DNA of 59,209 bases from a bacterium UBA2219 (GCA_002327765.1 DCUH01000073.1:31379-90587), one strand, 5' to 3'. Numbered from the stretch's first letter, positions 6,347 through 25,151 are shown. Notes: generated by a model from the sequence alone, not told the origin. Made by a program: numbers and translations.

Positions 6347-9217
6347 TCACATCCCTTCCAATAGCGCCACGGGGAAGGATCGGAAGAGCTCCTGGAGAGA
6401 GAGCGTCTTCCCGCCGGCCTTCCCGGTTGTCCGGATGATCTCTCCGGTGAACGCGTTGCGCCACGCGGACGGCAGGTTCCCCGGCAGCCGGAGGACGGTA
6501 CGCCGGCCCCAGGCCGGCTCCCCGAGGGGGAAATCGCCTTCCGGGGCGAGGCGCGTCGAAAGGCGCGGGACGGCCGCGATCGCCCACTTCCCCCCATGCC
6601 CCCTGGCGAAGGCCAGCGCATGCTCCTTCCGGCCTCCCGCGACGGGGAGGGGGAGGTACGCTCCGTCCAGAAATATGTCCCTCCGCTCCCGACGGAAGCA
6701 GAGCGCCTTGCATGTCACGTACAGCTTGATGCGCCCGTCCCGCCACGACGGAAGGAGCTCCCTGGCGAGGGCGGAGCGGTCCTGCTGTTCCCGGGTCAGC
6801 AGCTCGTTCAGCATGCCGATCCGCTTCCTGAAATCCACCGGCCTGCGGTTGTCGGGATCGACGAGGGAATAGTCCCAGACTTCCGTCCCCTGGTAGAAGT
6901 CGGGGACCCCGGGGGCGGCGATCTTCACCAGGAGCTGGGCGAGGCCGTTGATCGCCCCGTAATGGGCGATCTTCGCCTGGAACGGGAGGAAATCGGCCAG
7001 GAACGCGTTGGCGCCGGGGGAGGGCTCCTCCAGCAGGGCGAAGACGAAATCCCGGACCGCGCTTTCGTAGGGCGGGTTCGGCCGGATCCAGCGGGTATGG
7101 ACCTTTGCCTCCCGAAGGGCCTTCACCATGTAGCCCTGGATGCGGTTCGAAAGTTCCGGGAGCTCCTCCCTCCCGAGGGGCCAAGCGCCGAGAAGCGTCT
7201 GGTAGAGCAGGACCTCCTCGGCCGGGTCCGGCGCGGCGACCCCGTCCACGACCCGCTTCCTCGCCGCGTTCATGCCGCTCCAGGCCTTGAGACGCTCCTC
7301 CCATTCCCCGGGGATCTCCGAAAGGACGTTGATCCTGGCCCGCACGTCCTCGCTCCGCTTCGTGTCGTGCGTCGAGGTGGAGCTCATGGCGTACGGCCAT
7401 CTCCCGGCCGCCGTCGCGCAGCGTTCGTGGAAGGCGTCCACGGTGGCGCCGCCGGAGGCGGGATTCCCGCCGACCTCGTTCATGGAGACGAGCCGGCCGT
7501 ACCTGTACAGGGAGGTATCCTCGAATCCCTTCGCCATGATCGGCCCCGTGAACTGCTGCCAGCGCATGAGGAACCGCAGCCAGTCCTCCCGCTCGGCGAC
7601 GGACAGGGAGGGGGGGATCTCCTGCTGCAGCACCCTCCGGAGGAAGTCGAACACGGGGGCGCTGATCTTCGCGCCGCGCAGTTGCGCCTGCTTGAGGGCC
7701 TTCGCGATGTACCTCACGTCGCGTGCGGAAAGCCCGCCTCTCCTCGCGTACGTCCGATACACGGGGAAGCAGGCCGTGACCTCTACCAGAGCCGCGCGCA
7801 GCTCCTTCCGGGGAAGGTCGCGCGCGTACCGGTCCAGCTCCGCCAGCCGCCCCAGGTGCTGCCCCAGCGAATGCATCTCGCCGGCGAAGAGGGTGTCCAT
7901 CATGAGCATCTTGCCCCGGTAGACGGTCTCCCGGAAATCCGGCGCGGCGCCGGTGAACCTCGCGTAGACGTCGTCGAGGGTCTTGACCCCCCGGGCGCCG
8001 ACGAAGACGCCGTTCAGGGCGTTCATGAAATCGTAGCCGGTCGTCCCGTGGACGGGCCACTCGGGGGGGAGCGCCTCCTCTTCCCCGAGGATCTTCTCCA
8101 CCAGCACGTAGAACCCCGGGGCGGGGGCGGCTTCCCTCGAGCCGGTCAGGCGCTGCATCAGCCGGACGAGATAGCCGAGCGGATCAAAGAGACCGTCCAC
8201 GTGGTCCACGCGCAGGCCCGTCACCTTCCCCTCCGCCGCCAGGCGGAGCGCGAGATCGTGCGCGGCGTCGAAGACCCGCGGGTCCTCCACCCGGAGGCTG
8301 ATCAGGTCGGAGACGGCGAAGAAGCGCCGGTAGTTGATCTCCTCGTTGGCCAGGCGCCAGAAGGAGAGCCAGTAATGCTGCTCGGAGAGGATCCGGTCGA
8401 GATGGTCGAAACTTCCGGGGTCTCCTTTCCTGCCGTTCACGACCCGAAGGATCTCGTCGACGTATTCCCGGATTTCGTGCCGCTCCGTGTACAGCCGCAC
8501 GAACCGGGCCTTGATCGTTTCCTCGGCGGCGTACCGGTCCCGGAGCCCTTCCGGGTCGGACGGGACGGTCTTCGGCAGATGCTCGATCCCGGAGATGAGG
8601 TTCCACAGCTCCCGGAAGGAAGGGTGCTCCGGCCCGTAGGTCTCCTCGAGGAAAGACAGCCGCAGGGAGAGGATCCGCGGGTAGGAATGCAGAGACACCG
8701 GCAGCCGGACGGAGTGGCAGCGGATAGTGAAGCCGTCCTTCTCCAGCGACAGGGAGATCTCCCGATCCTCGATCGTCCTGCCGTACGGTCCCCCCAGGAT
8801 GGGCAGGAGCACCTTGCCGTTCAGCGCCTCCTTGGGGGAGTGCCAGTCGATGTCGAAATACGCGGCGAAGGGCGACGCCGGACCGTTCTCCAGCACGTCC
8901 ATCCACCAGCGGTTCTCTTCGCACGCGGCCATGTGGTTCGGGACGATGTCCAGCAGGAGCCCCATCCCGCGCTCCGTAAGCTCTTTCGCGAGCGCGTCGA
9001 AGTGCGCCGCGCCGCCCAGCTCGCCGTTCAACCGGGTGGGGTCGGTAACGTCGTACCCGTGGGCGCTGCCGCGTCTCGCCTGGAGGACGGGAGAGGCGTA
9101 GATGTCGGTGATCCCCAGGGCTTCGAGGTAGGGGACGAGGGCCCGGGCGCTTTCGAACCGGAACCGCCTGTGGAACTGCAGCCGGTAGGTGGCCGAGGGG
9201 ATGCGCAGGGGCGCCAT
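6347..9217 (-). CDS. treY: malto-oligosyltrehalose synthase
   Basis: 956 aa. MAPLRIPSATYRLQFHRRFRFESARALVPYLEALGITDIYASPVLQARRGSAHGYDVTDP is the canonical TreY N-terminus. Confidence 0.9.
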   Translation of the reverse strand: MAPLRIPSATYRLQFHRRFRFESARALVPYLEALGITDIYASPVLQARRGSAHGYDVTDPTRLNGELGGAAHFDALAKELTERGMGLLLDIVPNHMAACEENRWWMDVLENGPASPFAAYFDIDWHSPKEALNGKVLLPILGGPYGRTIEDREISLSLEKDGFTIRCHSVRLPVSLHSYPRILSLRLSFLEETYGPEHPSFRELWNLISGIEHLPKTVPSDPEGLRDRYAAEETIKARFVRLYTERHEIREYVDEILRVVNGRKGDPGSFDHLDRILSEQHYWLSFWRLANEEINYRRFFAVSDLISLRVEDPRVFDAAHDLALRLAAEGKVTGLRVDHVDGLFDPLGYLVRLMQRLTGSREAAPAPGFYVLVEKILGEEEALPPEWPVHGTTGYDFMNALNGVFVGARGVKTLDDVYARFTGAAPDFRETVYRGKMLMMDTLFAGEMHSLGQHLGRLAELDRYARDLPRKELRAALVEVTACFPVYRTYARRGGLSARDVRYIAKALKQAQLRGAKISAPVFDFLRRVLQQEIPPSLSVAEREDWLRFLMRWQQFTGPIMAKGFEDTSLYRYGRLVSMNEVGGNPASGGATVDAFHERCATAAGRWPYAMSSTSTHDTKRSEDVRARINVLSEIPGEWEERLKAWSGMNAARKRVVDGVAAPDPAEEVLLYQTLLGAWPLGREELPELSNRIQGYMVKALREAKVHTRWIRPNPPYESAVRDFVFALLEEPSPGANAFLADFLPFQAKIAHYGAINGLAQLLVKIAAPGVPDFYQGTEVWDYSLVDPDNRRPVDFRKRIGMLNELLTREQQDRSALARELLPSWRDGRIKLYVTCKALCFRRERRDIFLDGAYLPLPVAGGRKEHALAFARGHGGKWAIAAVPRLSTRLAPEGDFPLGEPAWGRRTVLRLPGNLPSAWRNAFTGEIIRTTGKAGGKTLSLQELFRSFPVALLEGM

Positions 9218-9221
9218 CCCG

Positions 9222-11657
9222 TCACTCCTCCCCGGCGACGAAGGAGAGCTTTTCCCCGAGGGAGCGGAACGCCCCGACCCAGGCCGTCGCCTGCGCGTCG
9301 CCTTCCCGCGATCTCTTGAGGATTTCCGGGTATACGGTTTTCCTCAGGTCGTCGTAGATGTTCTGGGCGCCGAAGAAGAGCACTTCGAAGGGCAGGTCGC
9401 GCCCCATGTCCACGGCCTCCTCGAAGCGGCGCAGGAGATCGAGATCCCCGGGCTCCTCCCGGAAGGCGTCCGCGACTGCGTCGACCCTCTTCTGGAGCGC
9501 GAACCCGATGCCCGCGGCGTCGAGCGGCAACCCGTTGCCGCTACCCTCTTCGAGGAGCCCCCGGATGACCGAGGCGTCCGGGATTTCCGCCGACACGGCG
9601 TCGCGCAGCTCCGCGTTCAGCGCGACCCTCGCCGAAGCGAAAAGCGGGTCGGGCAGCGGCATCCCCATGCTCGACAGGAAGCGGATCATGTTGGCGTGCT
9701 GACGGTAGACCTGCCGGTGGTTCGCCTCCGTGTCCGAGAGGGTCTGGGCGAGGATGATGTGGAGGATCTTGCGCAGCTCGTCGCGGAACAGCAGCTTCAG
9801 GGAATAGGTCCCCTGGCCGAAGTGCTTGTCGACCTTCCGGATCACGTCCGGCAGGTCGGCGGTCTTGAAGACGTCCCCGATCTCCCGGACGAGCGCCCCG
9901 TATTCCTCGTCGCCGCGGAAGTCGCGGATCCCCCCGCTGACGTTGTGGTCCCCCAGGTGCAGCACGCCAAAAGACAGGTGCGCCGATTCCCGCGTGACGG
10001 CGGAGGCGACGCGCGCCCTCCCGAGCGCGATCTTCGTCCTCCCGGACGTCTGGACGCGGAAATCCTCCCGGTCGACGTCGTAGCAGTAGATCCGCGCGCG
10101 GTCCGGGTAGTTCTCGAAGAGGGTGCTCACCGCGTAGTGGGCGCCGACCTTCTGCAGGTCGACCATGGCCGGCTTCACGAACTTCTCGTAGATGCGGCGG
10201 CCGTTCCCGTGCTCGGGCAGATTGCTGGCCGCCCGCTCGAGCCGCTCGAGGAACCCCGCCTCGACGGAGTCCCCGAAGACCTCCCTTCCGAGCTGGACGA
10301 CCCGGCCGGCGTACTGGAGCACCTGCACCGTCTCGATCCCGGAGATCTCGTCGAAGAACCAGCCGCAGCTCGTGTACATGAGCATGGCCTGCCGCTGGAT
10401 CTCCATCAGCCGCAGCGCGCGGACTTTCCGCTCCGGGGAGGTCTCCCCCGCGGCGTGCTTCCCCAGGAACCCGTCGACGGAGGCGTCGGACCGGTCGAGG
10501 ATCACGGAGATGTAGTCGTCGCGGGCGGCCCACGGGTCCTTGAAGATCTTCCCGCCTTCCGATTCGAACAGCGGGGCCACGGTGTCCCGGAGCCAGTCCA
10601 GCGCTTCCCGCAGCGGCGCTCTCCACCCCTGGTTCCAGCCGGGGCGCCCGCCGGAATTGCACCCGCAGTCGCTTTTCCAGCGCTCCACGCCGTGCACGCA
10701 GCTCCAGGAGCTGTTGTCGAAGATCTTGACGTCGTGGGTCGGCGGGAACCGCTCGAGGAACTCACCGTAGTTCGTGACCCGCACCTCCGGGTCGTTGTCG
10801 AGGAGCCGGAGGGCCCTCGAGAGCGCCATCTCCCCCTGGTGATGGTGGTGCCCGTACGTCTCGCCGTCCGTGGCGATGTGGACGAGCTGCTGCGGCCACG
10901 GGCGCTGGTCGGAGAAGGCCCCGCGCAGGCGGTCGGCGAGGTGCTCCCCCTTTTCGAGCAGCCTCTCGAAGGCCACGGCCTGGGAGACGGGCCCATCGTA
11001 GAAGAAGATGCAGATCTTCTTTCCCGAGGGGAGGCGCAGCTCGTACGGGATGGCGGGATCGATCCGGCCGTCGCTCGCGTCGCGCCAGTCCCGGGCCCCT
11101 TTCTTCCGGAACTTGGCCGCCTGGCGGGGGGCCAGGATCGTGAAGCGGATCCCTTCCCGGGCGAGGACCTCGAGGGTGGCAACGTCCGCGGCCGTCTCCG
11201 GCAGCCACATCCCTTCCGGCGCCCTGCCGAAGCGGTGCGCGAAATCCCGGATCCCCCAGCGGACCTGCGTCGCCTTGTCCCGCTCGTTGGCCAGGGGAAG
11301 GATGATATGGTTGTACCCCTGCGCCAGGGCGGAGCCGTGGCCGGAGAACGCCTCGCGGCTTTCCTTGTCGCCCTCCAGAATGGCGCGATAGGTCGCGGGA
11401 GACTTCTCCGCCATCCAGGAAAGCAGGGTCGGCCCGAAGTTGAAGCTGATCCGGGAGTAGTTGTTCACGATCTTCTCGATCCGCCCGTCCCCGGCGAGGA
11501 TCCGCGAATAGGCGTTGGCGGCGTAGCATTCCGCCACGATCCGCTCGTTCCAGTCGTGGAAGGGGTAGGCGGAGTCCTGCAGCTCGACCGCCTCCAGCCA
11601 GGGATTCTCCCGCGGGGGCTGGTAGAAGTGGCAGTGGATGCACACGTGTTTTTCCAT
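9222..11657 (-). CDS. glycoside hydrolase family 57 protein (long form, alpha-glucan acting)
   Basis: 811 aa. The N-terminus MEKHVCIHCHFYQPPRENPW... and GHGSALAQGYNHIILPLAN are GH57 catalytic-domain hallmarks. A long C-terminal extension follows. Confidence 0.85.
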   Translation of the reverse strand: MEKHVCIHCHFYQPPRENPWLEAVELQDSAYPFHDWNERIVAECYAANAYSRILAGDGRIEKIVNNYSRISFNFGPTLLSWMAEKSPATYRAILEGDKESREAFSGHGSALAQGYNHIILPLANERDKATQVRWGIRDFAHRFGRAPEGMWLPETAADVATLEVLAREGIRFTILAPRQAAKFRKKGARDWRDASDGRIDPAIPYELRLPSGKKICIFFYDGPVSQAVAFERLLEKGEHLADRLRGAFSDQRPWPQQLVHIATDGETYGHHHHQGEMALSRALRLLDNDPEVRVTNYGEFLERFPPTHDVKIFDNSSWSCVHGVERWKSDCGCNSGGRPGWNQGWRAPLREALDWLRDTVAPLFESEGGKIFKDPWAARDDYISVILDRSDASVDGFLGKHAAGETSPERKVRALRLMEIQRQAMLMYTSCGWFFDEISGIETVQVLQYAGRVVQLGREVFGDSVEAGFLERLERAASNLPEHGNGRRIYEKFVKPAMVDLQKVGAHYAVSTLFENYPDRARIYCYDVDREDFRVQTSGRTKIALGRARVASAVTRESAHLSFGVLHLGDHNVSGGIRDFRGDEEYGALVREIGDVFKTADLPDVIRKVDKHFGQGTYSLKLLFRDELRKILHIILAQTLSDTEANHRQVYRQHANMIRFLSSMGMPLPDPLFASARVALNAELRDAVSAEIPDASVIRGLLEEGSGNGLPLDAAGIGFALQKRVDAVADAFREEPGDLDLLRRFEEAVDMGRDLPFEVLFFGAQNIYDDLRKTVYPEILKRSREGDAQATAWVGAFRSLGEKLSFVAGEE

Positions 11658-13532
11658 TTACGGGCTCTCCTCTTCGTCTTCCAGGAGCAGGATGAAGGAC
11701 CTCGGGTTCACCGGAAGGCCGCTTCCTCCGGAGGGATCGAACGTCCCGGAAGCCATCCCCCCGGGACCTCCCCACCGGGCGTCGGAGGAATCCATCGCCT
11801 TTCTCCACCGTTTCCCGGGAAGCGGAAGACGCAACTCCGCCGGCGAGTCGCCGAAGTGGAACAGGACCGACGCGCGCGCCCCGGCGTTATCGCGCAGGAC
11901 GAGGAGGGCCCTGTCCCGCTCGAAGGGGACCGCCTCCGTCTTCCCGGCGAGCGGGCCTTCCGGAACGGCAAGGGCGGGGCTAGCCTTCCGGAGCCGGATC
12001 AGCTCCCGGTGCAGCCCGAGCAGGGCAGCGTGCCTCCCGGTTTCTCGAAGCGAAGGATCCGGCCGGGATATCCGGAAGGTCTCCTCGTCCTGCGGGTCGG
12101 GCACTCCGCCTTCCCACCCGAACGCTGCGAACTCCTCCTTGCGCCCCTTGCGGACCGCCTCGACGAGACCTTCGTCCCCGTGGTGCACGAAATAGAGGAA
12201 AGGCGCCTCCTCGCCGTACTCCTCCCCCATGAACAGCAGCGGCAGGAAGGGCGAAAGCAGGACCGCTCCCGCCGCGAGCTTGAGCGACTCGAAGGAGACC
12301 AGCCGGCTGAGCCGCTCCCCCCGCATCCGGTTCCCGACCTGGTCGTGGTTCTGGGCGAACACGACGAACTTCCCGGCGGGGAGATGGGAGGACCGGTTCC
12401 CGTGCCGGCGCATCCGGTACGCGGAATACTGCCCGGAGTAAACGAAGCCGTCCGTGAACGCCCGGGCCAGCTGTTCGATCTCTCCGAAGTCCGAATAATA
12501 TCCGTCGCGCTCGCCGGTCAGCAGGGTGTGAAGCGCGTGATGGAAGTCGTCGCTCCACTGGGCGTCGAGGCCGAATCCCCCCCGTTCCGGCTCGTCGACG
12601 ACACGGGCGTCGTTCAGGTCGCTTTCCGGGATCAGATAGGCGAAGCGGTTTTCCTCGGAACGGAAGCGGCGCACGGCCTCCGCGAGCTCGGCGAGGAAGG
12701 GGGAGGCGCTGAAGTCCATGATGCCGTGGATCGCGTCGAGGCGCAGGGCGTCCACGCGTAAATCCCGGATCCAGTAAAGGGCGTTTTCCCGGAAATACCT
12801 GCGCACCTCGTCGCTGCAGGGCCCGTCGAAGTTCACGGCGGAGCCCCAGGGGGTGCGGTACCGGTCGCTGAAGTAGGGGCCGAAATCCCGGAGGTAGTTG
12901 CCTTCCGGTCCGAGGTGGTTGTAGACAACGTCCAGAACGACCGCCAGCCCCCGGCGGTGGCACGCATCGATCAGCCGCGCCATCCCTTCCGGCCCACCGT
13001 AGCTTTCCTGGACCGCGAACGGGAATACGCCGTCATATCCCCAGTTCCGCTCCCCGGGAAACTGGGAGACGGGCATCAGTTCCACGGCGGTGATCCCCAG
13101 TTCCGCGAGGGAGTCGAGGCGCGGGATCACCGCATCGAAGGTACCTTCGGTCGTGTACGTCCCGATGTGAAGTTCGTAGAGGATGTACGAGGAGAGCGGG
13201 ATCCCGAGCCATCCGCGGTCCGTCCGGGGGAACGACCCGAAGTCGACCACCATGGTAGGGCCGTGGACCCCCCGCGGCTGCCGGCGCGACGCCGGATCGG
13301 GCCGCTCGATCGTTCCATCCAGTCGGTAGAGATAGAGCGCGCCCGCCGTCACGCCCTCCGCGATCCCGTTATGGTACCCGGATCCGTCGCGCTCCAGCGG
13401 GACGATCCGCTCGGGGGGGGAAAGAAGGCGGACCTCGACGGACCGGGCGGCGGGGGCGTACACCAGGAACCGGCATCGGCCGCCCGGGAGCAGGGTCGCG
13501 CCGAGGGGATGTCCCCGGATGTCCCCGGTCAC
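11658..13532 (-). CDS. treZ: malto-oligosyltrehalose trehalohydrolase
   Basis: C-terminal 624 codons of ORF 11658..15260. Contains GATLLPGGRCRFLVYAPAARSVEV (CBM48-like) and GH13 blocks VVLDVVYNHLGPEGN, DALRLDAIH, FAQNHDQVGNR. GTG start 13532-13530 overlaps the malQ TGA. Confidence 0.9.
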   Translation of the reverse strand: MTGDIRGHPLGATLLPGGRCRFLVYAPAARSVEVRLLSPPERIVPLERDGSGYHNGIAEGVTAGALYLYRLDGTIERPDPASRRQPRGVHGPTMVVDFGSFPRTDRGWLGIPLSSYILYELHIGTYTTEGTFDAVIPRLDSLAELGITAVELMPVSQFPGERNWGYDGVFPFAVQESYGGPEGMARLIDACHRRGLAVVLDVVYNHLGPEGNYLRDFGPYFSDRYRTPWGSAVNFDGPCSDEVRRYFRENALYWIRDLRVDALRLDAIHGIMDFSASPFLAELAEAVRRFRSEENRFAYLIPESDLNDARVVDEPERGGFGLDAQWSDDFHHALHTLLTGERDGYYSDFGEIEQLARAFTDGFVYSGQYSAYRMRRHGNRSSHLPAGKFVVFAQNHDQVGNRMRGERLSRLVSFESLKLAAGAVLLSPFLPLLFMGEEYGEEAPFLYFVHHGDEGLVEAVRKGRKEEFAAFGWEGGVPDPQDEETFRISRPDPSLRETGRHAALLGLHRELIRLRKASPALAVPEGPLAGKTEAVPFERDRALLVLRDNAGARASVLFHFGDSPAELRLPLPGKRWRKAMDSSDARWGGPGGMASGTFDPSGGSGLPVNPRSFILLLEDEEESP

Positions 13533-15667
13533 GGCCCGCCTCCTCCGCGGAGCCGCCGGACCTCCTCCAGAATCCGGGCGACTTGCGGCATCGCGCGGAA
13601 CTCCTCCATGGCGTATCGGCATTTCCTTTTCCAGTTTGGGCGCTCCTTCCAGGTGCCCGGGGTGTTCTGCGGCGCCTCTTCCAGCCAGAGGTCCTCCAGG
13701 TTGACGATCAGCGTTTCGGCGGGGCCGGCGGCGAGGCGGGCGAGGCAGCCCCGCAGCGCGTCTCCCGCCGCCGCGACCCCGCGCGGACCTCTTCCGCTTC
13801 CGCAGATCCCCAGGCAGGCCGACAACGCCAGCACGGCCTTCCCCCGCGCCGCCCTTTCCCGTTCCGCGCCGCGGGGGGCGAGAAGCCCCAGGGAAAGGCG
13901 GTCGTCGATGTCGCGCCCCTTCCAGAAGGAGGCGAAGGGAGGCATGTCGTGGGTGTTCATGCAGGCGACGGACCCTTTCGGGACGCGCGCGAGCGCGTCG
14001 CAGCCGCCAGACGACAGGCCGAACTGCGCCACCGACATCCGGAGGAACCCGTGCCGGGACATCGCCGGCCGCACCTGCGGGGGAACCGTCCCGAGGTCCT
14101 CCCCGACGATCCGGGCCCGGTGCCGGTTCGATTCCAGGCAGGCCACGGCGTACAGCTCCTCCGCGGGGTACCGCACGTAGGTTCCCTCGGCGGGCCCCGC
14201 CCCCTTCGGGATCCAGAAGAAGCGGTGCAGCCCCATGACATGGTCGATCCTCAGGATCCCCGCGTGCCGGGCCTGGGCGGCGATGCATTCGCGGAAATAG
14301 GCGTGCCCCTCCTCCCGCGACCGTTCGGGCTGCAGCGGGGGGAAGCCCCAGTCCTGCCCCCGGGTGAAGAAGTCGTCGGGGGGAGCGCCCGCGGAGGCGT
14401 CGAGCGCGAAGAGCGCGCGGCGCCTCCAGACGTCGTAGCCGTCGTAGCTCGCCCCCAGCGGAAGGTCGAGGTAGAGGAGCTTCCTCCCTCCTTCCGATAG
14501 GGCGCGCAGCTGGAGCCGGAGCGCCCATTGGACGAACAGGTGGTACCGTTTCCCCGCCTCGTCGAAATCGCCCGGCCGCAGTAGCCCGTCCCCCGGCGGC
14601 CCGCCCCAGGCGGGCCACGGGGTCCCGCGGCGGTCCCAGGCCGCCCGGAAGGCGGCGTAATCCTCCACCCACGGGTTCTCCGCGAAGAACCGCCGGTATC
14701 CTTCGTCCGAACCGCTCTCGCCCCGGAAGAACCGGCGCGCGAGCGCTTCGAGGACGGGGCGCTTCCTCTCCAGGGCGCGGCGGTGGTCCACGAACCGGGA
14801 GCTCCGGAGCCGTTCCGTCTCTTCCCGGTACGCGGACGACGAGACGAGCGCCTTCGCCTCCCGGCACTCCGCGAAGCCGGGCGCGGCTTCCGGGTCGAGG
14901 TAGATCTCGTTCCACGCGAGACGGCTGCAGGGGGCGTAGGGGCTCGGCTCGAACGGCTCGGGCGCGCAGAACGAGAGCAGCGGGAGCGTCCCGACCGCGC
15001 TGCCGCCCAGCCGCTCCACCCAGTCCATCAGGTCGCGCAGATCCGTCAGGTCCCCGCCGTTCGCGCTCCGGCGGGAATGCAGGGCGTACAGGGGGAGGAA
15101 GACTCCCCACCCGCGGCGCTCTTCCTCCGGCGGGGCCCATGCCCGGGAAGGAGCGGAGACGAGCGTCGCCTCCCCGCGGACCCTCCCCCTGAGCTCCACA
15201 TGAAGCCGGTGGCATCCCATGGGCGGGCTCCACGGCAGGAGGATCCGTTTCTCGACGCACTCCCCGGCGCTCCCGGTCCCCGCACCCGATGGGGGGACGC
15301 GGGAGAGGTCGAAGGCGGCTTCCTTCGCGCCGCCGCCCTCCAGAACGAGGCGGACCCGGACGCGCCCGTTCCCCGCCCGCAGGGGAAGCCTCAACGGAAG
15401 GCTCGCCGGGGCGCCGTCCCAGGAGACGCAGACCGGGGGGCAGACGCGGTCCCAGGCGGATTCCTCCGCGCGCCGGAGCGCGTCCGGGGCGTCACGGGCC
15501 GTCTCCAGCGGCTCCCCGAGGCAGCGAAGCACCGCGACCAGCGTTTCGGGCGGAGGCGTCCTTCTCCCGTGGAGGATGTCGACGTACGAAGTCTGGACGC
15601 CGCGCAGCAGCGCCAGCCGGCGCAGGTCGCGCAGTTCCCGCGAACCTCCCCGGGACGGCGCCGTCAT
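13529..15667 (-). CDS. malQ: 4-alpha-glucanotransferase (amylomaltase, GH77)
   Basis: Start at MTAPSRGG (ATG 15667-15665). GH77 blocks LLYLDLPLGASYDGYDVW, ILRIDHVMGLHRFFWIP, IVGEDLGTVP, ACMNTHDMPP. Confidence 0.85.
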   Translation of the reverse strand: MTAPSRGGSRELRDLRRLALLRGVQTSYVDILHGRRTPPPETLVAVLRCLGEPLETARDAPDALRRAEESAWDRVCPPVCVSWDGAPASLPLRLPLRAGNGRVRVRLVLEGGGAKEAAFDLSRVPPSGAGTGSAGECVEKRILLPWSPPMGCHRLHVELRGRVRGEATLVSAPSRAWAPPEEERRGWGVFLPLYALHSRRSANGGDLTDLRDLMDWVERLGGSAVGTLPLLSFCAPEPFEPSPYAPCSRLAWNEIYLDPEAAPGFAECREAKALVSSSAYREETERLRSSRFVDHRRALERKRPVLEALARRFFRGESGSDEGYRRFFAENPWVEDYAAFRAAWDRRGTPWPAWGGPPGDGLLRPGDFDEAGKRYHLFVQWALRLQLRALSEGGRKLLYLDLPLGASYDGYDVWRRRALFALDASAGAPPDDFFTRGQDWGFPPLQPERSREEGHAYFRECIAAQARHAGILRIDHVMGLHRFFWIPKGAGPAEGTYVRYPAEELYAVACLESNRHRARIVGEDLGTVPPQVRPAMSRHGFLRMSVAQFGLSSGGCDALARVPKGSVACMNTHDMPPFASFWKGRDIDDRLSLGLLAPRGAERERAARGKAVLALSACLGICGSGRGPRGVAAAGDALRGCLARLAAGPAETLIVNLEDLWLEEAPQNTPGTWKERPNWKRKCRYAMEEFRAMPQVARILEEVRRLRGGGGP

Positions 15668-16800
15668 CCCGCCTGCCCTTCGAGCGTCTGCAGGTCGCCC
15701 GAACGCCCCATCAGCTGGACGTACCGGGCGATCCCGCTGCGGGTGATCATCCCCTCGATCCGGCCGCCGCTCGTGACCACCAGCCTTCCGACGTCGCCCC
15801 GGATCATCCGCTCGAGCGCCTTGACGGCGTCCTCTTCCGGGGAAACCTCCCACTCCGCCCGGTGCGGCACGTAGACCGCGGACACCCGCGTGGATTCGCG
15901 CGGCACGTCCTTCAGCTCCTTCAGGGTGAGCATGCCGAGGTACTTCCCGTTTTCCACCACGGGATACCCCCCGTAGCCGTAGCGCAGGAAATACCCGCTC
16001 ACGGCCTCGTCGAGACGGATGGAGGGCGGAACGGTCACCAGGTCCCTCGCCATGATGTGGCGCACCTTGATCCCGTCGAGGATCTCCTGGATCCCCGCCT
16101 GCTGGTAGCTCGCCTTCGCGGCGGTGTACAGGAACCAGCCGATGAGCATGAGCCAGATCCCTCCCGGCATCCCGGTGAACAGCGAGAAGATCCCCAGGAA
16201 GATGAAGAACAGCGCGATCTTCTGCCCGACGCCCGAGGCCTTCTGGGTCGCGTAGAAATAGTTCTTCTTCCGTTTCCAGAGGAACGACCGGAGCACCCTG
16301 CCCCCGTCCATCGGGAACCCCGGGATGAGGTTGAAGGCGGCCAGGATGAAATTGATCCGCGCGAGATAGGAGAAAAGGGCCCGCACGCCTCCTTCCGCCT
16401 GGAGCGTCCCGAACAGGAAGAGGGCCGCGAGGAGGAAGCTCGAGAGTGGCCCCGCGACCGCGATCCAGAACTCGGCGCGGGGGTGCGGCGGCTCGCTCTT
16501 CATCTGCGCCACGCCCCCGAAGATGAACAGGGTGATGCTCTCGATGGGTATGCCGTATCGCCTCGCGACGAAGGAATGGGCGAGCTCGTGGAAGGCCACC
16601 GAGGCGAAGAGGAGAAGCGACGCCAGGGCGCCCTTGATCCAATAGGCCAACGCCGGCAGGTCGGGCGCGGCCTGAGGGAAATAGACCGTCGAAAGCGACC
16701 AGGTGATCAGGCCGAATACGAGAAACCAGGTGAAATGCAGCCGGATCGGGATCCCCATCACCGAGCCGATCTTCCACGCGCCCGCCAGGGAGCCGTTCAT
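15664..16800 (-). CDS. site-2 protease (M50) family metalloprotease with C-terminal CBS pair
   Basis: Start MNGSLAGAW (ATG 16800-16798). Has HELAH zinc motif, AAFNLIPGFPMDGGRV (the NxxPxxxxDG motif), then two CBS-like repeats (IMARDLVTVPPS..., GRLVVTSGGRIEGMITRSGI). Confidence 0.85.
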   Translation of the reverse strand: MNGSLAGAWKIGSVMGIPIRLHFTWFLVFGLITWSLSTVYFPQAAPDLPALAYWIKGALASLLLFASVAFHELAHSFVARRYGIPIESITLFIFGGVAQMKSEPPHPRAEFWIAVAGPLSSFLLAALFLFGTLQAEGGVRALFSYLARINFILAAFNLIPGFPMDGGRVLRSFLWKRKKNYFYATQKASGVGQKIALFFIFLGIFSLFTGMPGGIWLMLIGWFLYTAAKASYQQAGIQEILDGIKVRHIMARDLVTVPPSIRLDEAVSGYFLRYGYGGYPVVENGKYLGMLTLKELKDVPRESTRVSAVYVPHRAEWEVSPEEDAVKALERMIRGDVGRLVVTSGGRIEGMITRSGIARYVQLMGRSGDLQTLEGQAG

Positions 16801-19460
16801 GACGCCCTCCTTTCCAGGGAAGCCCGTCCCCGGATCCATTTGTCCAGTTCCACGGCGACAACGACGGTCATGGAAATCGCCACGATGAGGAGCCAGTCCG
16901 CGCCGTCGAGGGGTACCGTCCGGAAGACCCGCTGCAGCGGAGGGGCGTAGAGCACGGCGAGCTGGGCGAGCAGCGCCGCGATCACGCTGTACAGCAGGAA
17001 CGGGTTGCTGAAGGGGGAGATCCGGAAGACGGACCGGTGCTCGGACCGGCTGTTCCAAACCTGGAAGAACTGGAAGAGGACCATGGTGGTCATCGCGACC
17101 GATCGGGCCTTCTCGATCGACGCGCCGTGGCGCAGCGCGCCGAAATAGGCGAACAGGATCCCGGCCGAGATGGTCAGCCCGACGAGGACGGTCCGCTCGA
17201 GCAGGAGGCGGGACATGATCCCTTCCCGCGGGTCCCGCGGCGGGCGCAGGAGGGTTCCCTCCTCCCCCGGCTCGAAGGCGAGGGCGACGTCCTGCAGCCC
17301 GTTGGTCACGAGGTTGATCCAGAGGATCTGCGCGGGGAGGTAGGGAGCCGGGAACCCCATGAGGACGGAGGCCAGGATCGAGAGGATGCTGGCAAGCCCG
17401 GTGGGAATCAGGAAGAAGGTGACCTTCCGGATGTTGTCGAAGACGATGCGCCCTTCCCGTACGGCGTGGAAGATGCTGGCGAAGTTGTCGTCCGCCAGCA
17501 CCATGTCCGAGGCCTCCTTGGCCACGTCGGTCCCCGTGATCCCCATCGCGATGCCGATATGCGCGGCCTTGAGCGAGGGGGCGTCGTTCACGCCGTCCCC
17601 GGTCATGGCCACGATCTCTCCGCCGCGGATCAGCTGCTTCGCGATCCGCAGCTTGTGCTGCGGCGAGACGCGGGCGTAGACGGACACCTCCCCGGTCTTT
17701 TGGAAGAGGGCGTCGTCGTCCATCGGCTCGATTTCGCGGCCGGTCAGCACGACGGGATCCTTTCCCCCGATCCCCAGCCCCCGGGCGACGGCCGACGCGG
17801 TGACCGCATGGTCGCCGGTGATCATCACGACCCGGATTCCCGCCTTGCGGCACCCTTCCACGGCCTCGATCGCCTCCGGGCGCGCCGGGTCGATCATCCC
17901 CTGCAGGCCGGCGAAGCGGAAGCCGGACTCCGCGTCCCGGTGGTGCAGCTCCGCCATCTCGGCGGGAGCCTCCTTCCACGCGAAGGCGAGCACCCGGAGC
18001 CCGTCCGCGGCAAGGTGGCCCGCCGTTTCGAGGATGTGCTCCTTTTCCCGCTCGCCCGCGGAGCACATCGGGACGACCCGCTCCGGTGCGCCTTTCAGGA
18101 AAACGCGCTTTCCGTCCGCCGTCCTGTGGAGCGTCGCCATGTACCCCCGGTCGGACTCGAAGGGGATGATCGAGATCAGGGGGTTCTGCTCCAGTTCCTT
18201 TTCGCGCAGGATGCGGGCCTTCCCGGCCGCCACGATGAGGGCGCCTTCCGTAGGATCGCCGTCGACCCTCCATCGCCCCGACTCTTCGCGGACCTCGGAC
18301 TCCGTGCAGAGGGCGCCGATCCGGAGAAGCGTCGCCAGGTCCGGGTTCTTCGCCGGGTCCGCCGGGTCGCCGTCCCGGAGGACCTCGCCGACCGGCTCGT
18401 AGCCGGTGCCCGTCACCTCGTACGTCCGGGCCCCGTCGTGGAGCACCTTCACCGTCATCTCGTTCCGGGTGAGCGTCCCGGTCTTGTCGCTGCAGATGAC
18501 CGTCGTGCTGCCGAGCGTCTCGACGGCGGGGAGCCGGCGGACGACCGCCTTCTGGCGCGCCATGCGGCTGACCCCGATGGCGAGAACGATCGTCACGACA
18601 ATGGGAAGCCCCTCGGGCACCGCGGCGACGGCGGCGGTCACTGCGGTCATGAACATGTCCTTGACGGGCTCCCCGACGAGGAGCCCCGCCAGGAAGAGGA
18701 GAACGGACGCCCCCAGGACCAGGATTCCGATCATGTGCGCGAAGCGCTCCATCTTCTGCTGGAGGGGCGCCTTGGCGGCCCCCACCTCGCGTACTTCCCG
18801 CGCGATGCCACCCAGGACGGTGGAGCTCCCGGTAGCGACCACGATTCCCCTGCCCCTGCCGTTCAGGACGATCGTCCCCATGAACGCCATGTTCCTCTGG
18901 TCGCCCGGGGTGAGGTTTTCCTCCGGAATGGGGGTGTGGATCTTCGCCGCGGGAAGCGATTCGCCGGTAAGCATCGCCTCCTCCACGGAGAGCTCCAGGG
19001 AACGAACCAGCCGGAGGTCGGCGGGCACGCGGGCGCCGGAGGCCAGGAGCACGATGTCCCCGGGGACCAGTTCCTCGCTCGGGATCTCGCGTTCCTTCCC
19101 TTCCCGGACGACCCGGGCCTTCGGCACCTCGAGCTTCCGCAGCGCGCGGACGCTTTCCTCCGCCCGGTATTCCTGGAAGAATCCGATGACCGCGTTCAGA
19201 AGAACGACGAAGAGGATGACGCCCGCGTCCGTGAATTCCCTAAGCAGCAGGGTGACCAGGGCCGCGAGGAGCAGGATATAGATGAGGGGGCTCGTGAACT
19301 GGTTGAGGAAGATGCGGAACCGGTTGATCTCCTCCTCTCCGGCGAGGCGGTTCGGTCCGTGCTCCGCGAGCCGTTCCCTCGCCTCCGTTTCGGCGAGGCC
19401 GCTTTCCCGCGTTTTCGTCTCCGCGAGAACCTGTTCCGCTTCCATCCGGTACCAGTCCAT
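16797..19460 (-). CDS. cation-transporting P-type ATPase (type II, SERCA/PMCA-like)
   Basis: 887 aa with [19 protein letters not shown] (TM4), TGDHAVTA and [21 protein letters not shown] sits immediately after the mrpG stop. Confidence 0.9.
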
Positions 19461-19469: not shown

Positions 19470-19847
19470 CTACCCGGCGTCCGGGCCGCGGGAAGCTGTC
19501 CGGGCATCCCGTCGTTCCTGTTCCTCGAGCGCCTTCTTCAGTTCGTCCGTGACCCGGTCCCCCCACAGGGGAACCCCCGAGAAATAGGCCGCCCGCGCGA
19601 TCATGTGGCCCGCGACGGGGGCCGTCAGGCAGAAAAAGCCGATCACGAGGAGCGCGGAAACCGTGATCCCGAAGTCGGCGAAAAAGATCGTCAGCGCCAG
19701 GATCATCAGCGTGACCCCCAGGGTGGCGGCCTTGGCCGACGCCTGGACCCGGCTGTAGAGGTCGGGGAAGCGGAAGACGCCGACGGCCCCGAGGAGCATG
19801 AAGGCGGAGCCGAGGCAGAGCAGGATCGCGGCGGCCAGCTCCTTCAC
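19470..19847 (-). CDS. mrpG: Na+/H+ antiporter subunit G
   Basis: 125 aa. ...GAVGVFRFPDLYSRVQASAKAATLG... is the MnhG/PhaG signature. GTG start overlaps the mrpF TGA. Confidence 0.8.
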   Translation of the reverse strand: MKELAAAILLCLGSAFMLLGAVGVFRFPDLYSRVQASAKAATLGVTLMILALTIFFADFGITVSALLVIGFFCLTAPVAGHMIARAAYFSGVPLWGDRVTDELKKALEEQERRDARTASRGPDAG

Positions 19848-20131
19848 GGTTCCCTCCGTTCACTGATGTAATAGGCGAACCCCACCGTTCCGAGAAACGC
19901 CAGCAGCGCGAGGACGATCGCGGACCGGAGCAGGATCGGCTGCAGGGTCAGGATGTCGTATGCGACGATTATGCCCACCGCCAGCAGCGCGAGGAGGTCG
20001 AGCGCCACCACGCGGTCGGCGAGGCTGGGGCCCCACAGCAGCCGGGCGAGGGCCAGGAGCATCGCCAGGCAGAGCATCGCCAGCGAGACCGTGCACGAGA
20101 GGAAGATGATCCTCGGGATCTCGGGTGTCAT
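19844..20131 (-). CDS. mrpF: Na+/H+ antiporter subunit F
   Basis: 95 aa, 3 TM. ...LLWGPSLADRVVALDLL... is MnhF-like. Position in the operon agrees. Confidence 0.75.
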   Translation of the reverse strand: MTPEIPRIIFLSCTVSLAMLCLAMLLALARLLWGPSLADRVVALDLLALLAVGIIVAYDILTLQPILLRSAIVLALLAFLGTVGFAYYISERREP

Positions 20132-20597
20132 CGCATCACCTCGAGGAGCCGGCGTTCGAGGCCTTCTTTTATCTCCCGGCGGACGGCGTCCGGGTCGTCC
20201 AGGTACATGACGTGGATGTAGAGGCTGCGCCGGTCCGGGGACACGTCCAGGACGAGGGTTCCCGGCGTCAGCGTGATCAGGCCGGCGAGGAGCGTGATCT
20301 CCCCGTCGGTCTTCGCTTCGAGCGGCAGGGCGATCACTCCCGGCCGCATCCGGTGCCTCGGCGTCACCACGTCGTAGGCCACCTGGAGGCTGGCCGCCAC
20401 AAGGCTCCGGAGGAAAAATGCTGCCAGGCCCACGAGCGGCAGGATTTTCAAGGTCTTCAGGGACAGCCCGAGCAGGTCCTGCAGGAAGTAGAGGATCACA
20501 TACCCCAGAACAAAGCCGGTCAGGAGGCTCCCTTCCGTCACATCGCCCGTCATTGCGGCCCAGGTCAGCGCCAGAAGGAGGTTGGCCAGGAATTCCT

Positions 20598-20601
<4 letters not shown>
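20128..20601 (-). CDS. mrpE: Na+/H+ antiporter subunit E
   Basis: Start MKEFLANL (ATG 20601-20599) overlaps the mrpD TGA. Contains ...[11 protein letters not shown]...[11 protein letters not shown]...[11 protein letters not shown]... (MnhE pattern). Confidence 0.75.
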
Positions 20602-22090
<1,489 letters not shown>

Positions 22091-22094
<4 letters not shown>

Positions 22095-22438
22095 GTGTCC
22101 GTCGCCTTCATCTGGTCCAGGTCGTCGGTTCCGACCTCGCTGTAGGCGCGGCGGAACAGCGCGAGGCCGAACGCCAGCACGGCGAAGCTGATCACGATGG
22201 CGGTCAGGATCAGCGCCTGCGGCAGCGGGTCGGCATAGGGCGGCAGCAGCGCCCGGCTCCCCTCGGGGACCAGCGGGGGGGCCTCCCCGTGGAACCCGGC
22301 GGCGGTGAAGATGAGGAGGTTGGCGGCGTGGCTCATCAGCGCGAGGCCGAAGAGCAGCTTGACGAGGCTGCGCCGCAGCATCAGGTAGATTCCGGCCGCG
22401 TAGAGCCCGCCCACCACCACCGCCAGCACGGTCTCCAT
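22091..22438 (-). CDS. mrpC: Na+/H+ antiporter subunit C (NuoK-like)
   Basis: Start METVLAVV (ATG 22438-22436). 115 aa, ...[29 protein letters not shown]... NuoK/MnhC-like. Confidence 0.8.
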
Positions 22439-22854
22439 CACTCCTCCTCGGCGAACGAGAACACGATGTTCAGGACCACCCCGAGAACCGTCAGGAGGAC
22501 GCCGATGTCGAACAGCAGGGGGGTTCCCAGGTCCGCGGGGCCGCCGGGGAAGCGTTCGATCGTCGTCCATTGCCCCGTCAGGAACGGCTCGCCGCGCAAC
22601 AACGCCCAAAGCCCGCTGCCCGCGGCGACCAGCAGGCCGGCCCCGATCAGGGAGACGGGACGGGCACGCAGGCTCTTCCGGGCGACGTCGGTGCCGTAGG
22701 CGATCACCACCAGCGAGAAGGCCGCCGAGGCCACGAGGCCTCCCGCGAAGCCTCCTCCGGGTTCGTTGTGCCCCCGCACCAGCAGGAACACCGAGAAGAG
22801 CAGCAGCAGCGGGAACACGAAGCGGGTCGCCGTGCGGAGGATGAGGGAACTCAC
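22438..22854 (-). CDS. mrpB: Na+/H+ antiporter subunit B
   Basis: GTG 22854-22852 (overlaps the mrpA TGA) gives a 138-aa protein. [39 protein letters not shown] is the MnhB signature. Confidence 0.75.
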
Positions 22855-25151
22855 GGGGTTTTCCCCTTCCCGGGGCGCAGCTTCAAAAGCGCATACGCCC
22901 CGATCCCGGCGACCGCCAGGACGGTGATCTCCCCCAGCGTGTCGAGACCGCGGAAGTCCACCAGGATGACGTTGACGACGTTGCGCCCGTGCGCCAGCGG
23001 AACGCTCGTTTCCGCGAAGTACCCGGAGATGGACGGGAGGCGCTTCCCCGCCGTCGTGGCGAGCACGAATCCCGCCATGAGGCAGCCGGCAAGCAGCGCC
23101 ACGAACGCGTCGCGCGCCCGCGAGCCGCGGCTGGAGATCCTGGAGTATGGGGGGAGATGGTGCAGCGCCAGTACGAAGAGGACCACGGTGACGGTCTCGA
23201 TGATGAACTGCGTCATCGCGAGGTCGGGCGCGCCGCGCAGGATGAAGATCAAAGCGATCCCGTAGCCGACGACGCCGAGGGAGGCGACCGCCGCGAGGCG
23301 GGAGCGGGAGCGCACCGTGGCCCCGGCCGCGACCAGGACGAGCCCAGCGAGGCACAGTTCGTAGAAACGCGCTCCGGAAAGCGGCGCGGCGAACGGGACG
23401 CCCCCTCCGCGGAGCAGGGCGAAGCCGGCCGCTGCCAGGGTGGCGACGACGATGGTCAGGAGGTAGGTCCGCAGGTAGCCGCTCTGGAGGAGGCGGGTCT
23501 GCGTCCGGGCGAGATAGGTCAGCTGCTTCATCCCGGCGTCATACCAGGAGGACGGGCCCAGCGCCCCGAGATGCCCCCACCGGGCGCGCAGCGACAGCAG
23601 CCGGCCGCGGGCGGCGCAGAGCCCGACCCCGCCGGCCACGGCCGCCGCGCTCAGGATCAGCATCGGATCGAAGCCGTGCCACAGCGCGAGGTAGACTTCG
23701 TAATCCCATCCCAGGACCGCGGAGACCGCCGCCGAGAGGACGGGGACGAACGGTCCGGGAAGGATGCCCCCGAACAGCCCGAGGATGCCCAGCAGGGCGG
23801 GACCGATCCAGAGCGCCGCCGGGGCCTCGTGCGGCTCGATCCTCGTCGGGCGGGGCGCCCCGGCGAAGGGGCGCACGCCGACGACGTACGCGATCGCCAC
23901 GTAGGCGGCCCCGGCCAGGAGGACGGCGACCGTGGCCGCGATCCGGAAAGCCGGGGCGGCGGATACCGCCCCGAGAAGGTTTTCCTTGGCGAGGAACCCG
24001 GTGAGCGGAGGAAGCCCGGCCATCGACGCGGCCGCGGTGACGGCCGCCACGGCGGTGACCGGCATTTTCCGGGCGAGGCCCGAGAGCCGGGCGACGTCGC
24101 GCTCTCCCGCGGCGTGGTCGACGGCGCCGGCGACGAGGAACAGCGAGCCCTTGTAAAGGGCGTGCGCAGGCAGGAACACGATCGCCGCGGTGATCGCTGG
24201 GCCGGTGCCGATCCCCAGCATCATCGTGAGGGCCCCGAGGGCGCTCACGGTCGAGTAGGCCAGGAGGCGCTTGAGGTACGTCTGCTGGAGCGCGAGCCAT
24301 GCCCCGGCCAGCATGGTCGCGGCGCCGACGACGGTCACGGGGACATGCCAGGCGGGGTCGTCCCCGAGCACCGGGTTCAGCCGGGCCAGGAGGTAGATGC
24401 CCGCCTTCACCATCGTCGCGGCATGAAGGTAGGCGCTTGCCGGGGTGGGTGCCTCCATGGCGTTCGGAAGCCAGAAGTGGAACGGGAACTGGGCCGACTT
24501 GGTGAATGCGCCGAGCAGCACAAGGAGAAGCGCGGGAACGTACAGGGGGCTTGCGCGGAGCGCCTCGCCCCGGTGCGACAGGCCGGAGATCTCCATGGAG
24601 CCCCCGATGTCCCCCATCAGGAGGAAGCCGGCCAGCAGCGCCAGCCCCCCCCCGCCCGTCACCAGGAGCGCCTGGAGCGCCGCCTTCCTCGCCTTGTCCC
24701 GGTCATGGTCGAACCCGATGAGCAGGTAGGAGGTCACGCTGGTGAGTTCCCAGAAGACGAACAGGAGGAGCAGGTTGTCGGCCAGCACCACGCCCAGCAT
24801 CGACGCCATGAACGCGAGGATGTACGCGTGGAAACGGCCGGCCTGCGGGTTCCCCTCGAGGTAGCCGCCGGCGTAGACGACCACCAGCGCGCCGACCCCG
24901 GTGATCAGCAGCGAGAACAGCAGGCTCAGGCCGTCCAGGGAGAAGGACAGGTTCACGCCGAGGGACGGCACCCAGGGGAGGAACGTCCTGACGGGCTCCC
25001 CTCCCGCCACCGCCCCGGCCTGGCCGAGGAAATACCCCGTCAGCCCGAGAGGCAGAAGCGCGAGGAGCCATGCGGACGCGCGAGGCGAAAGCCGGTGGAT
25101 CCAGGGCGCGAATGCCGCCAGGACGAACCCCGAAAGGACGGCGATGAGCAT
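22851..25151 (-). CDS. mrpA: Na+/H+ antiporter subunit A (NuoL-like)
   Basis: ORF 22851..25259. Start set at the second ATG (25151, MLIAVLSGF...) because AAAGGA lies 7 nt upstream, whereas ATG 25172 has no SD. NuoL-like blocks [15 protein letters not shown] and [31 protein letters not shown]. Confidence 0.85.

Follow-up and report, generated by a model that had tools for sequence, protein, structure and literature searches.

Group-1 Mrp (CPA3) Na+/H+ antiporters are encoded by an mrpABCDEFG operon, as in Bacillus, and treX is a common but not strictly defining member of the clusters that encode the TreY/TreZ trehalose pathway. Osmoadaptation genes are also clustered on a larger scale in the 'hypersalinity island' of Salinibacter ruber, and the site-2 proteases (S2P) include M50 enzymes with a cytoplasmic pair of CBS domains, such as mycobacterial Rv2625c. 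In a 59,209-nt stretch of DNA from bacterium UBA2219 (GCA_002327765.1, DCUH01000073.1:31379-90587), referred to below as the window, genes of these kinds follow one another on the minus strand from 25151 to 6347 in a string of 13, in the order mrpABCDEFG, P2-type ATPase, CBS-domain S2P, MalQ, TreZ, GH57/DUF3536 and TreY. We hold, with moderate confidence, that the 13 genes make up a real operon-like unit, read in one direction and coupled in translation, and that this unit is the tightest local version of an ion-homeostasis and compatible-solute island built from modules. It is a lineage-specific compaction of an osmotic/ionic-stress island that is shuffled in relatives, and not a new kind of system. 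The initial annotation of this DNA knew of no described operon joining mrp and tre genes, and a literature search turned up no description of an mrp-treYZ operon either; four papers name Mrp along with treY and treZ, and in one of them, PMC13597103, Mrp is a separate 5.7-kb operon.

Positions are window coordinates throughout, and L-numbers denote loci fetched for comparison. The S2P served as anchor in 185,579 species genomes, the ATPase did so in metagenomes, and GH57 homologues gave a third set; tblastn with all island proteins followed. Families were assigned with Pfam and with NCBIfam equivalog models, which have curated cutoffs, PDB was searched by sequence for structures, and Rfam was used for RNAs. 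A public copy of the contig with independent gene calls, ENA ERZ27315072 k141_143531, is a 220-kb metagenome contig. The window has 68% GC throughout, and the best named GH57 matches are 'Deltaproteobacteria' metagenome-assembled genomes (MAGs) of 65-66% GC and Ca. Deferrimicrobiaceae. From the names of these matches, the host, an uncultured high-GC lineage, is tentatively placed as probably MBNT15/Deferrimicrobiota-like.

All 13 reading frames are open and in frame and start with ATG or GTG. The 12 junctions are, in order, -4, -1, -4, -4, -4, -4, +9, -4, -4, -4, 0 and +4 nt, so that ten have no untranslated spacer and the remaining two have 4 and 9 nt; on re-reading the sequence, the junctions first listed were exact to the base at all 12. 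A GGAGG-like Shine-Dalgarno (SD) motif lies ahead of every start, within the 3′ end of the preceding gene, and in the 9 nt between the mrpG stop and the ATPase ATG the motif AGGAGGA begins inside the TAG. The independent calls on the ENA contig have the same 13 starts, and Pfam matches begin no more than 10 residues from the N-terminus in nine of the proteins and later in MrpA, MrpF, MalQ and GH57. In L168, L169, L170 and L172, treZ overlaps the upstream gene by 4 nt, whichever gene that is. This packing, with SD motifs embedded in the upstream genes, fits translational coupling. Overlaps of 4 nt are the ordinary operon junction in this compact genome, and the same GTGA and ATGA junctions occur in the divergent chain upstream; the unusual aspect of the string is its length and functional heterogeneity, and no single junction. 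The GC content at third codon positions (GC3) is also uniform, at 0.85-0.96, over all 17 same-strand genes of the run to which the string belongs, and uniform GC and GC3 give no sign that the tre block was acquired recently from elsewhere.

The gene identities first proposed are borne out by Pfam families for all products and by the NCBIfam cutoffs passed by TreZ (TIGR02402, 710 bits against a cutoff of 539), TreY (TIGR02401, 955 against 499) and MalQ (TIGR00217, 248 against 206). All seven Mrp subunits are contiguous in the order A-G, and MrpA has the C-terminal extension with PF13244 and PF20501 that marks group 1. TreZ matches S. solfataricus TreZ (1EH9) with E=2e-156 and is identical to it in the motifs RLDA, ESDLND and QNHDQ, which we take to carry the GH13 catalytic residues D252/E283/D377. 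The Pfam and NCBIfam searches found no GlgX-type gene in the island for the GH13 debranching enzyme TreX/GlgX, and the slot is filled by the GH57+DUF3536 protein. A protein of this type lies between TreZ and TreY in L168, L169, L170 and L172, and occurs in a TreY/TreZ/TreT cluster of Methylomirabilis. The PDB sequence search returned no informative solved relative for it, and the literature search gave just two marginal mentions of DUF3536, whose titles and abstracts assign it no function. Its habitual association with TreZ and TreY suggests a function for DUF3536, with GH57+DUF3536 as the probable α-glucan debranching or trimming partner of TreY/TreZ.

No hairpin followed by a T-tract had been seen inside the string in the initial annotation, and a consensus scan agrees, finding 12 weak matches in 2500-22400 against 9.3 expected from shuffled sequences, none of them convincing. 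Scans for the sigma-70 consensus and for terminators over 2500-31000 gave nothing within the string beyond the shuffle background; the internal promoters or terminators named at the outset as capable of splitting it into separate units were thus not detected by consensus. No riboswitch or leader was matched by Rfam in the whole window. The extended -10 motif TGnTAnnnT occurs only twice on the minus strand in 1400-25400, upstream of mrpA (TGGTATAGT) and in the gap between treY and the next gene, which encodes an MscS-type channel (TGCTATAAT), and these are the two boundaries of the string as first drawn. CGTGGTATAGTT at the mrpA motif is kept in L008 between variable flanks, and the treY-MscS motif is kept in L168 as TGTTATAAT. 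The signals fit two units, one from mrpA to treY and one from MscS onward, the candidate motifs being consensus matches. At the position of a would-be -35 (~25275-25290) there is an inverted repeat, GCCGCAggTGCGGC, where L008 has a different repeat, CGAGGCtgcgGCCTCG, at its ~1555-1575; as the symmetry persists in the two sequences compared although the letters differ, the repeat could be an operator or form a structure. A sigma-54 reading of TGGTATAGTTGC upstream of mrpA was rejected, since, judged by eye, neither the window nor L008 has the right GG-to-GC spacing. The hairpin after treY (GGAGAACCGTT/AACGGCTTTCC) is a weak candidate for a terminator, folding no better than shuffled sequences (z=0.46) and being absent from L168.

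The string is not self-contained: it occupies the central part of an island of ~28 kb that also has four further genes on the same strand and a divergent chain (Table 1). The locus from 1428 to 29874 encodes three cation/proton antiporters, one primary pump, one chloride channel, one mechanosensitive channel and two trehalose routes. The calls of the four downstream genes are repeated at other fetched loci: the MscS length is the same on L001, L005 and L168, and L168 also has a gene with the Na_H_Exchanger+Usp architecture that is 96% identical to the CPA2-Usp gene of the window, the same 423-aa call for the second exchanger, overlapping its neighbour, and a GYD protein that is 100% identical. 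The ClC start is taken from the 603-aa call on L001. DUF5752 is next to TreT in Methylomirabilis (L171) and next to OtsB in L170.

Table 1. Features of the string and the surrounding island. Overlaps and spacers refer to the adjoining gene of the same strand.
Feature	Position	Strand	Length (aa)	Families and context
mrpA	22851..25151	-	766	Proton_antipo_N/M + MbhD + MbhE; same start on ENA contig
mrpB	22438..22854	-	138	PF04039 MnhB, E=1e-37; GTGA 22851-22854 overlap with mrpA
mrpC	22091..22438	-	115	PF00420 Oxidored_q2; TGATG 22436-22440 with mrpB, 1-nt overlap
mrpD	20598..22094	-	498	PF00361; ATGA 22091-22094 with mrpC
mrpE	20128..20601	-	157	PF01899 MNHE; ATGA 20598-20601 with mrpD
mrpF	19844..20131	-	95	PF04066; ATGA 20128-20131 with mrpE
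mrpG	19470..19847	-	125	PF03334; GTGA 19844-19847 with mrpF
P2-type cation ATPase	16797..19460	-	887	Pfam Cation_ATPase_N + _C; atypical TM6
Site-2 protease M50 + tandem CBS pair	15664..16800	-	378	Pfam Peptidase_M50 + two CBS; ATGA 16797-16800 with ATPase
MalQ, 4-α-glucanotransferase (GH77)	13529..15667	-	712	PF02446 + MalQ_N; TIGR00217; ATGA 15664-15667 with S2P
TreZ, malto-oligosyltrehalose trehalohydrolase	11658..13532	-	624	TIGR02402; GTG start, GTGA 13529-13532 with malQ
GH57 + DUF3536 glycoside hydrolase	9222..11657	-	811	Pfam; 0 nt after treZ stop
TreY, malto-oligosyltrehalose synthase	6347..9217	-	956	TIGR02401; 4 nt after GH57
MscS-type mechanosensitive channel	5209..6261	-	350	Pfam MS_channel 1st/2nd/3rd; ATG 6261, AGGAGGG SD
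CPA2 cation/proton antiporter fused to Usp domains	3018..5168	-	716	TIGR00932; 40 nt after MscS
Second Na_H_Exchanger	1750..3021	-	423	Pfam; TTGA overlap with CPA2-Usp
GYD-domain protein	1428..1715	-	95	PF08734; 34 nt after Na/H exchanger; last of 17-gene run
ClC chloride channel + CBS pair	25381..27192	+	603	Pfam; NF002505 ClcB-like, below cutoff; divergent from mrpA
Trehalose-phosphatase	27189..27986	+		PF02358; start GTG 27189 (GTGA overlap with ClC) or TTG 27258
DUF5752 protein	27983..28639	+		PF19027, E=2e-63; ATGA overlap with phosphatase
TreT-type trehalose synthase (GT4)	28636..29874	+		PF21269 TreT_GT1 + Glycos_transf_1; ATG 28636, ATGA overlap with DUF5752
Candidate extended -10 (mrpA)	25259..25267	-		116 nt upstream of mrpA ATG, in 229-nt divergent intergenic region 25152-25380
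treY-MscS gap (85 nt)	6262..6346	-		Candidate extended -10 (6313-6305), overlapped by hairpin, then GTTTTC

Beyond the island, a hybrid-cluster (prismane) protein gene is found at 31683-33410 (-). The longest AT-rich patch of the window, ~100 nt at no more than 40% GC in 30-nt windows, is at 40788-40890 and ends with an AGGAGA SD and an ATG; it probably serves the plus-strand gene that starts at its end as a strong promoter or a regulatory region. An AMP-binding enzyme gene follows at 41267 and is the first of a packed plus-strand run to 48274 that continues with a ketopantoate-reductase-like protein, a TPP enzyme, an Fe-ADH and a LarA-like lactate racemase, which indicates that abutting open reading frames are common in this genome.

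Sub-blocks of the arrangement are kept in L005, L008, L168, L169, L170 and L172; all 13 genes in a row were found, among the fetched genomes, only in the window's own population. Behind the oppositely oriented ClC gene, the window reads mrpA-G, ATPase, S2P, MalQ, TreZ, GH57, TreY, MscS, CPA2-Usp, Na/H exchanger and GYD. L168 has the same order from MalQ to GYD. L008 matches the window from the ClC gene to S2P, with 85-95% amino acid identity over mrpA-G, ATPase and S2P, and continues with an opposite-strand GH100-like gene, GlgE, TreS/Mak, MalQ (63%) and a GH13 gene. L005 reads mrpE-G, ATPase, S2P, MalQ, MscS and GYD, with a clean absence of window segments 13573-6235 and 5112-1741. The junction made of the mrpG stop, 9-10 nt and the ATPase ATG is kept in the window, L005 and L008. 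In L169 an opposite-strand GH100-like gene precedes GlgE, TreS/Mak, GlgB, TreZ, GH57, TreY, MscS, NaCaEx, the ATPase (62%, with the transmembrane motif NGLQD described below) and MrpA (51%), and L170 reads GlgE, TreS/Mak, MalQ::GlgB, TreZ, GH57, TreY, MscS, ClC, MarR, OtsA, OtsB and DUF5752; treZ-GH57-treY is thus kept in L168-L170, and also in L172.

Beyond the high-GC group, some of these families are found together, differently ordered, in Nitrospiraceae SURF_45, two Brocadiaceae MAGs, Nitrospiraceae UBA2194 and Methylomirabilis lanthanidiphila. Nitrospiraceae locus L007 has ClC, ATPase, S2P, Na/H, TreZ, TreY and an MscS-like gene, and Brocadia loci L042 and L044 have TreY, ATPase and S2P. 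The linkage of ion transport with trehalose and α-glucan genes is a recurrent trait, selected or at least tolerated, and its recurrence in relatives makes functional coupling plausible. The modules are shuffled among relatives at gene boundaries. Origin of the window order by simple deletion from an L008-like GlgE-TreS-MalQ-GlgB order is weakened by the MalQ of L008, which is only 63% identical, against 83-88% in L005 and L168. Of 80 metagenome contigs anchored on the ATPase, mostly homologues of 42-49% identity, 77 have no island genes nearby, and the linkage therefore belongs to the closer clade of this ATPase.

Among the relatives, L170 has a 1346-aa MalQ::GlgB fusion at 4101-8141, and its TreY (12376-15320) is called as two open reading frames of 343 and 652 aa, reflecting a frameshift, a sequencing error or a pseudogene. 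The opposite-strand GH100/MGH1-like glycosidase ahead of GlgE-TreS, at 11197-12252 (-) in L008 and 1-683 (-) in L169, may hydrolyse a compatible solute, e.g. glucosylglycerate or mannosylglycerate.

The ATPase has the core motifs TGES (165), DKTGT (325), TGD (548/620) and GDGVND (621) and the PEGL motif (282) of transmembrane helix 4 (TM4), and its closest PDB entries are SPCA1 (E=1e-186) and LMCA1 (E=2e-171). Its best NCBIfam models are Ca types of class IIA, whose cutoffs it does not reach, and it scores below the cutoffs of TIGR01522, TIGR01116 and TIGR01517. When TM6 is aligned, N720 is opposite the Ca-binding D742 of SPCA1, so that the acidic Ca2+ ligand of TM6 (D742 in SPCA1, D800 in SERCA) is missing; in the clade with this NGLQD motif a new Asp is found one helical turn after the Asn that replaces the canonical Ca2+-binding Asp. 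The TM6 motif is exact in 13 of 15 fetched copies with at least 49% identity, and in L169, while two have a single substitution elsewhere and Asn720 is present in all 15. Carriers of the Asn-type TM6 beside the window are L005, L007, L008, L015, L030, L042, L044, L076, L084, L088-L090, L150 and L169. Most homologues of 42-47% identity have TDGxPA, and a third group has TSSTLG. Because of Asn720 and the scores below the Ca-ATPase cutoffs, the protein was not filed as a Ca2+ pump, and it is probably not one. The lost charge in TM6 and the neighbouring genes point rather to a monovalent-cation pump, more likely for Na+ than for Ca2+. The literature search gave no usable paper on bacterial P-type Na+-ATPases.

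The protease has the S2P motifs HELAH (71-75) and NLIPGFPMDG (157-166), PF02163 and two CBS stretches, as expected of its family. It is ~70% identical across Nitrospirota, Brocadiales and Acidobacteria, and its N-terminus, MNG...WKIG, is kept in homologues down to 68% identity. The initial annotation had the protease placed between two operons. However, within 6 kb of the S2P in 82 loci the neighbours were thyX in 23, hisB in 21, hisC in 20 and a P-type ATPase in 19, and ten distinct loci, belonging to Nitrospirota, Brocadiales, Deltaproteobacteria MAGs and an Acidobacteria MAG, have an ATPase of 58-95% identity no more than 10 kb from it. In several phyla the S2P thus accompanies this ATPase clade, and, as the ATPase is one of its two habitual neighbourhoods, it has not been 'inserted' between operons here. 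The other neighbourhood, hisC/hisB and thyX, accounts for roughly a quarter of the loci (20-23 of 82), mostly Nitrospirota MAGs (L011-L079). Two S2P paralogues are 5 kb apart in L016, and in lower-GC Nitrospirota (L006 2521-8741, L007 6900-12898) S2P-CBS occurs with phosphoketolase (XFP), acetate kinase, a Na/H exchanger with TrkA_C, and Usp. The genes annotated in the window (~1-48 kb) include none for a sigma or anti-sigma factor, and a substrate may be encoded elsewhere. The literature search returned nothing on CBS site-2 proteases and salt stress. At 15664-15700 (-) a C-terminal tail of 9-12 aa runs into the malQ start in the window lineage and in homologues P0003 and P0005; the tail is absent from homologues of no more than 76% identity and unconserved among its three carriers, and looks like a by-product of rearrangement. 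A bolder proposal, which we consider rather improbable, is that the NGLQD ATPases are an uncharacterised clade of prokaryotic exporters of Na+ or other monovalent cations, forming a module with a CBS-S2P that senses ionic strength or adenylates and controls the pump or the island, a single mRNA setting the stoichiometry of extrusion to trehalose.

Under the preferred reading of a coupled operon-like unit, a promoter in the 229-nt divergent region (candidate extended -10 at 25267) would drive a long polycistronic mRNA, and the buried SD motifs and 4-nt start/stop overlaps would pass ribosomes from gene to gene. Mrp, driven by the proton-motive force, would exchange Na+ of the cytoplasm for H+, and the P2-type ATPase would add ATP-driven export of a cation, more likely Na+. 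The CBS-S2P, its motifs being intact, may be a ligand-gated protease that cleaves within the membrane and modulates or reports membrane and ionic stress. MalQ and GH57/DUF3536 would remodel and linearise glycogen or maltodextrin, from which TreY and TreZ would make trehalose. The next unit (MscS, CPA2-Usp, Na/H exchanger, GYD), with its own conserved extended -10, could provide a release valve and further cation/proton exchange, and the divergent ClC-TPP-DUF5752-TreT chain chloride handling and a second trehalose route. The string would have arisen by module shuffling at gene boundaries and not as an ancient fixed operon. We infer a single transcript from mrpA to treY, and co-regulation is plausible. 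If all 13 genes are transcribed together, the cell would fix the expression ratio of 'salt-out' (Mrp and a primary pump) to 'solute-in' (glycogen to trehalose) in an unusually explicit way, and the string would offer simple genetic access to the responses of uncultured bacteria of the subsurface and of sediments to ionic stress.

Several observations weigh against this reading. Overlaps demonstrate compaction and possible coupling and are no proof of a single mRNA. The promoter scans know only the sigma-70-type consensus and would miss promoters inside genes at 68% GC, and about five TGnTAnnnT motifs would be expected by chance on this strand, so that two, both intergenic, are suggestive and not decisive. 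The pumps and the tre genes were initially said to be hard-wired to each other, and in relatives their join is broken. In the closest genome, L008, the opposite-strand GH100-like gene and the GlgE-TreS module interrupt the string after S2P, L005 is without treZ-GH57-treY, and in L169 the tre genes are upstream of the ATPase and Mrp, with gaps of 204 nt before the ATPase and 163 nt before mrpA. The interruption in L008 and the absence in L005 indicate that co-transcription of pump and tre genes is dispensable in near relatives. The ion specificity of the ATPase is a prediction from sequence, the host lineage is placed solely by the names of its best GH57 matches, and in this phylum TreY/TreZ have been read as storage-carbon metabolism (PMC9386147).

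It is possible, though we think it doubtful, that the locus is a supra-operon without obligate co-expression, in which modules of a compact genome have been brought together, intragenic promoters act, e.g. before the ATPase or malQ, and the overlaps result from deletion bias. The module boundaries of the relatives, at S2P/malQ in L008, at malQ/treZ and treY/MscS in L005 and around the ATPase in L169, are of the kind that this would produce; the unrelated divergent chain is equally tight, and the unconserved S2P tail is as expected from a stop re-created after rearrangement. However, nothing promoter- or terminator-like rises above background inside the string, extended -10 motifs occur only at its ends, the SD of each gene lies within the gene before it, and ten of the 12 junctions are free of spacers, all of which favours the coupled unit.

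An alternative concerns the function of the unit: a programme for dormancy, starvation or desiccation and not a salt response, in which trehalose/glycogen cycling by TreYZ, MalQ and GH57, and by GlgE-TreS in relatives, manages stored carbon and the transporters, with Usp, GYD and CBS-S2P, maintain resting cells. We consider it unlikely. The run does include a Usp fusion and a GYD protein, the Nitrospirota homologues of S2P-CBS lie beside Usp, phosphoketolase and acetate kinase, and in mycobacteria the gene for the CBS-S2P Rv2625c belongs to the DosR regulon, in the company of Usp genes. The genome paper on Ca. Deferrimicrobium (PMC9386147), in which Mrp is unmentioned, takes TreYZ and OtsAB as storage metabolism. 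On the other hand, Mrp, two further cation/proton antiporters, ClC and a mechanosensitive channel are classic ionic and osmotic hardware, and MscS travels with TreY in L168-L171. The dormancy and salt-response readings overlap and are not mutually exclusive.

That the arrangement is an artefact, either an assembly chimera or a set of mis-called starts faking overlaps, is very improbable: the source is a metagenome contig, but the junctions from mrpD to GH57 are spanned in three other assemblies from different pipelines (Logan SRR5323303, JGI 3300001580 and ENA ERZ27315071; 100% nucleotide identical, so that they may sample one population and perhaps share reads), species-level relatives are collinear with the window over ClC-mrpA-G-ATPase-S2P (L008, 88.6-94% nucleotide identity), mrpD-malQ (L005, 83%) and malQ past GYD (L168, 89.8%), starts agree with N-terminal Pfam coverage for most genes and with the homologue alignment for S2P, and composition is uniform. 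The chimera raised as a possible objection in the initial annotation is effectively excluded by these assemblies, relatives and composition.

The main interest of the locus is the association of the ATPase with the protease and the altered ion site, and the recurrent cross-phylum pairing of a highly conserved CBS-S2P with this P2-ATPase clade is a lead for further work. Two others are GH57+DUF3536 as the habitual partner of TreZ/TreY where TreX is absent, and the locus as a clear case of operon building through module shuffling at gene boundaries.

When compared with described systems, the mrp genes have the canonical A-G order, all subunit families and the overlapping junctions of the Bacillus-type group-1 operon, but the run continues past mrpG, with the ATPase 9 nt on and five further genes behind it at spacers of no more than 4 nt. 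As in treX/treY/treZ clusters and MalQ-TreY fusions (PRK14507, 1693 aa), TreY and TreZ pass their cutoffs and MalQ accompanies TreY; unlike them, the window has GH57+DUF3536 in place of a GH13 TreX/GlgX, and the cluster is chained to ion pumps. The actinobacterial GlgE cluster (GlgE, TreS-Mak, GlgB) has its likeness in L008, L169, L170 and L172, which carry GlgE-TreS/Mak-(MalQ)-GlgB before TreZ-GH57-TreY or at the malQ position, whereas the window has no GlgE, TreS/Mak or GlgB and only MalQ between S2P and TreZ. The P2A Ca2+-ATPases SPCA1/PMR1 and Listeria LMCA1 are the best matches of the ATPase and share TGES, DKTGT, TGD, GDGVND and the TM4 PEGLP, but the D742 equivalent is Asn720, GLPA/GPPA is replaced by GLQD clade-wide, and the score is below every NCBIfam Ca-ATPase cutoff. 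With CBS-domain site-2 proteases such as Rv2625c the window protein shares the M50 core with HExxH and NxxPxxxxDG and two CBS domains; it differs in that its neighbours include no gene for a substrate or for a partner anti-sigma factor, and about a quarter of the loci of this protease adjoin the ATPase clade. Like the Salinibacter ruber hypersalinity island, the locus brings many ion-transport and osmoprotection genes together, but here they form overlapped co-directional runs with two complete trehalose routes, and the findings extend the known clustering of osmoadaptation genes and overturn no current understanding of it.

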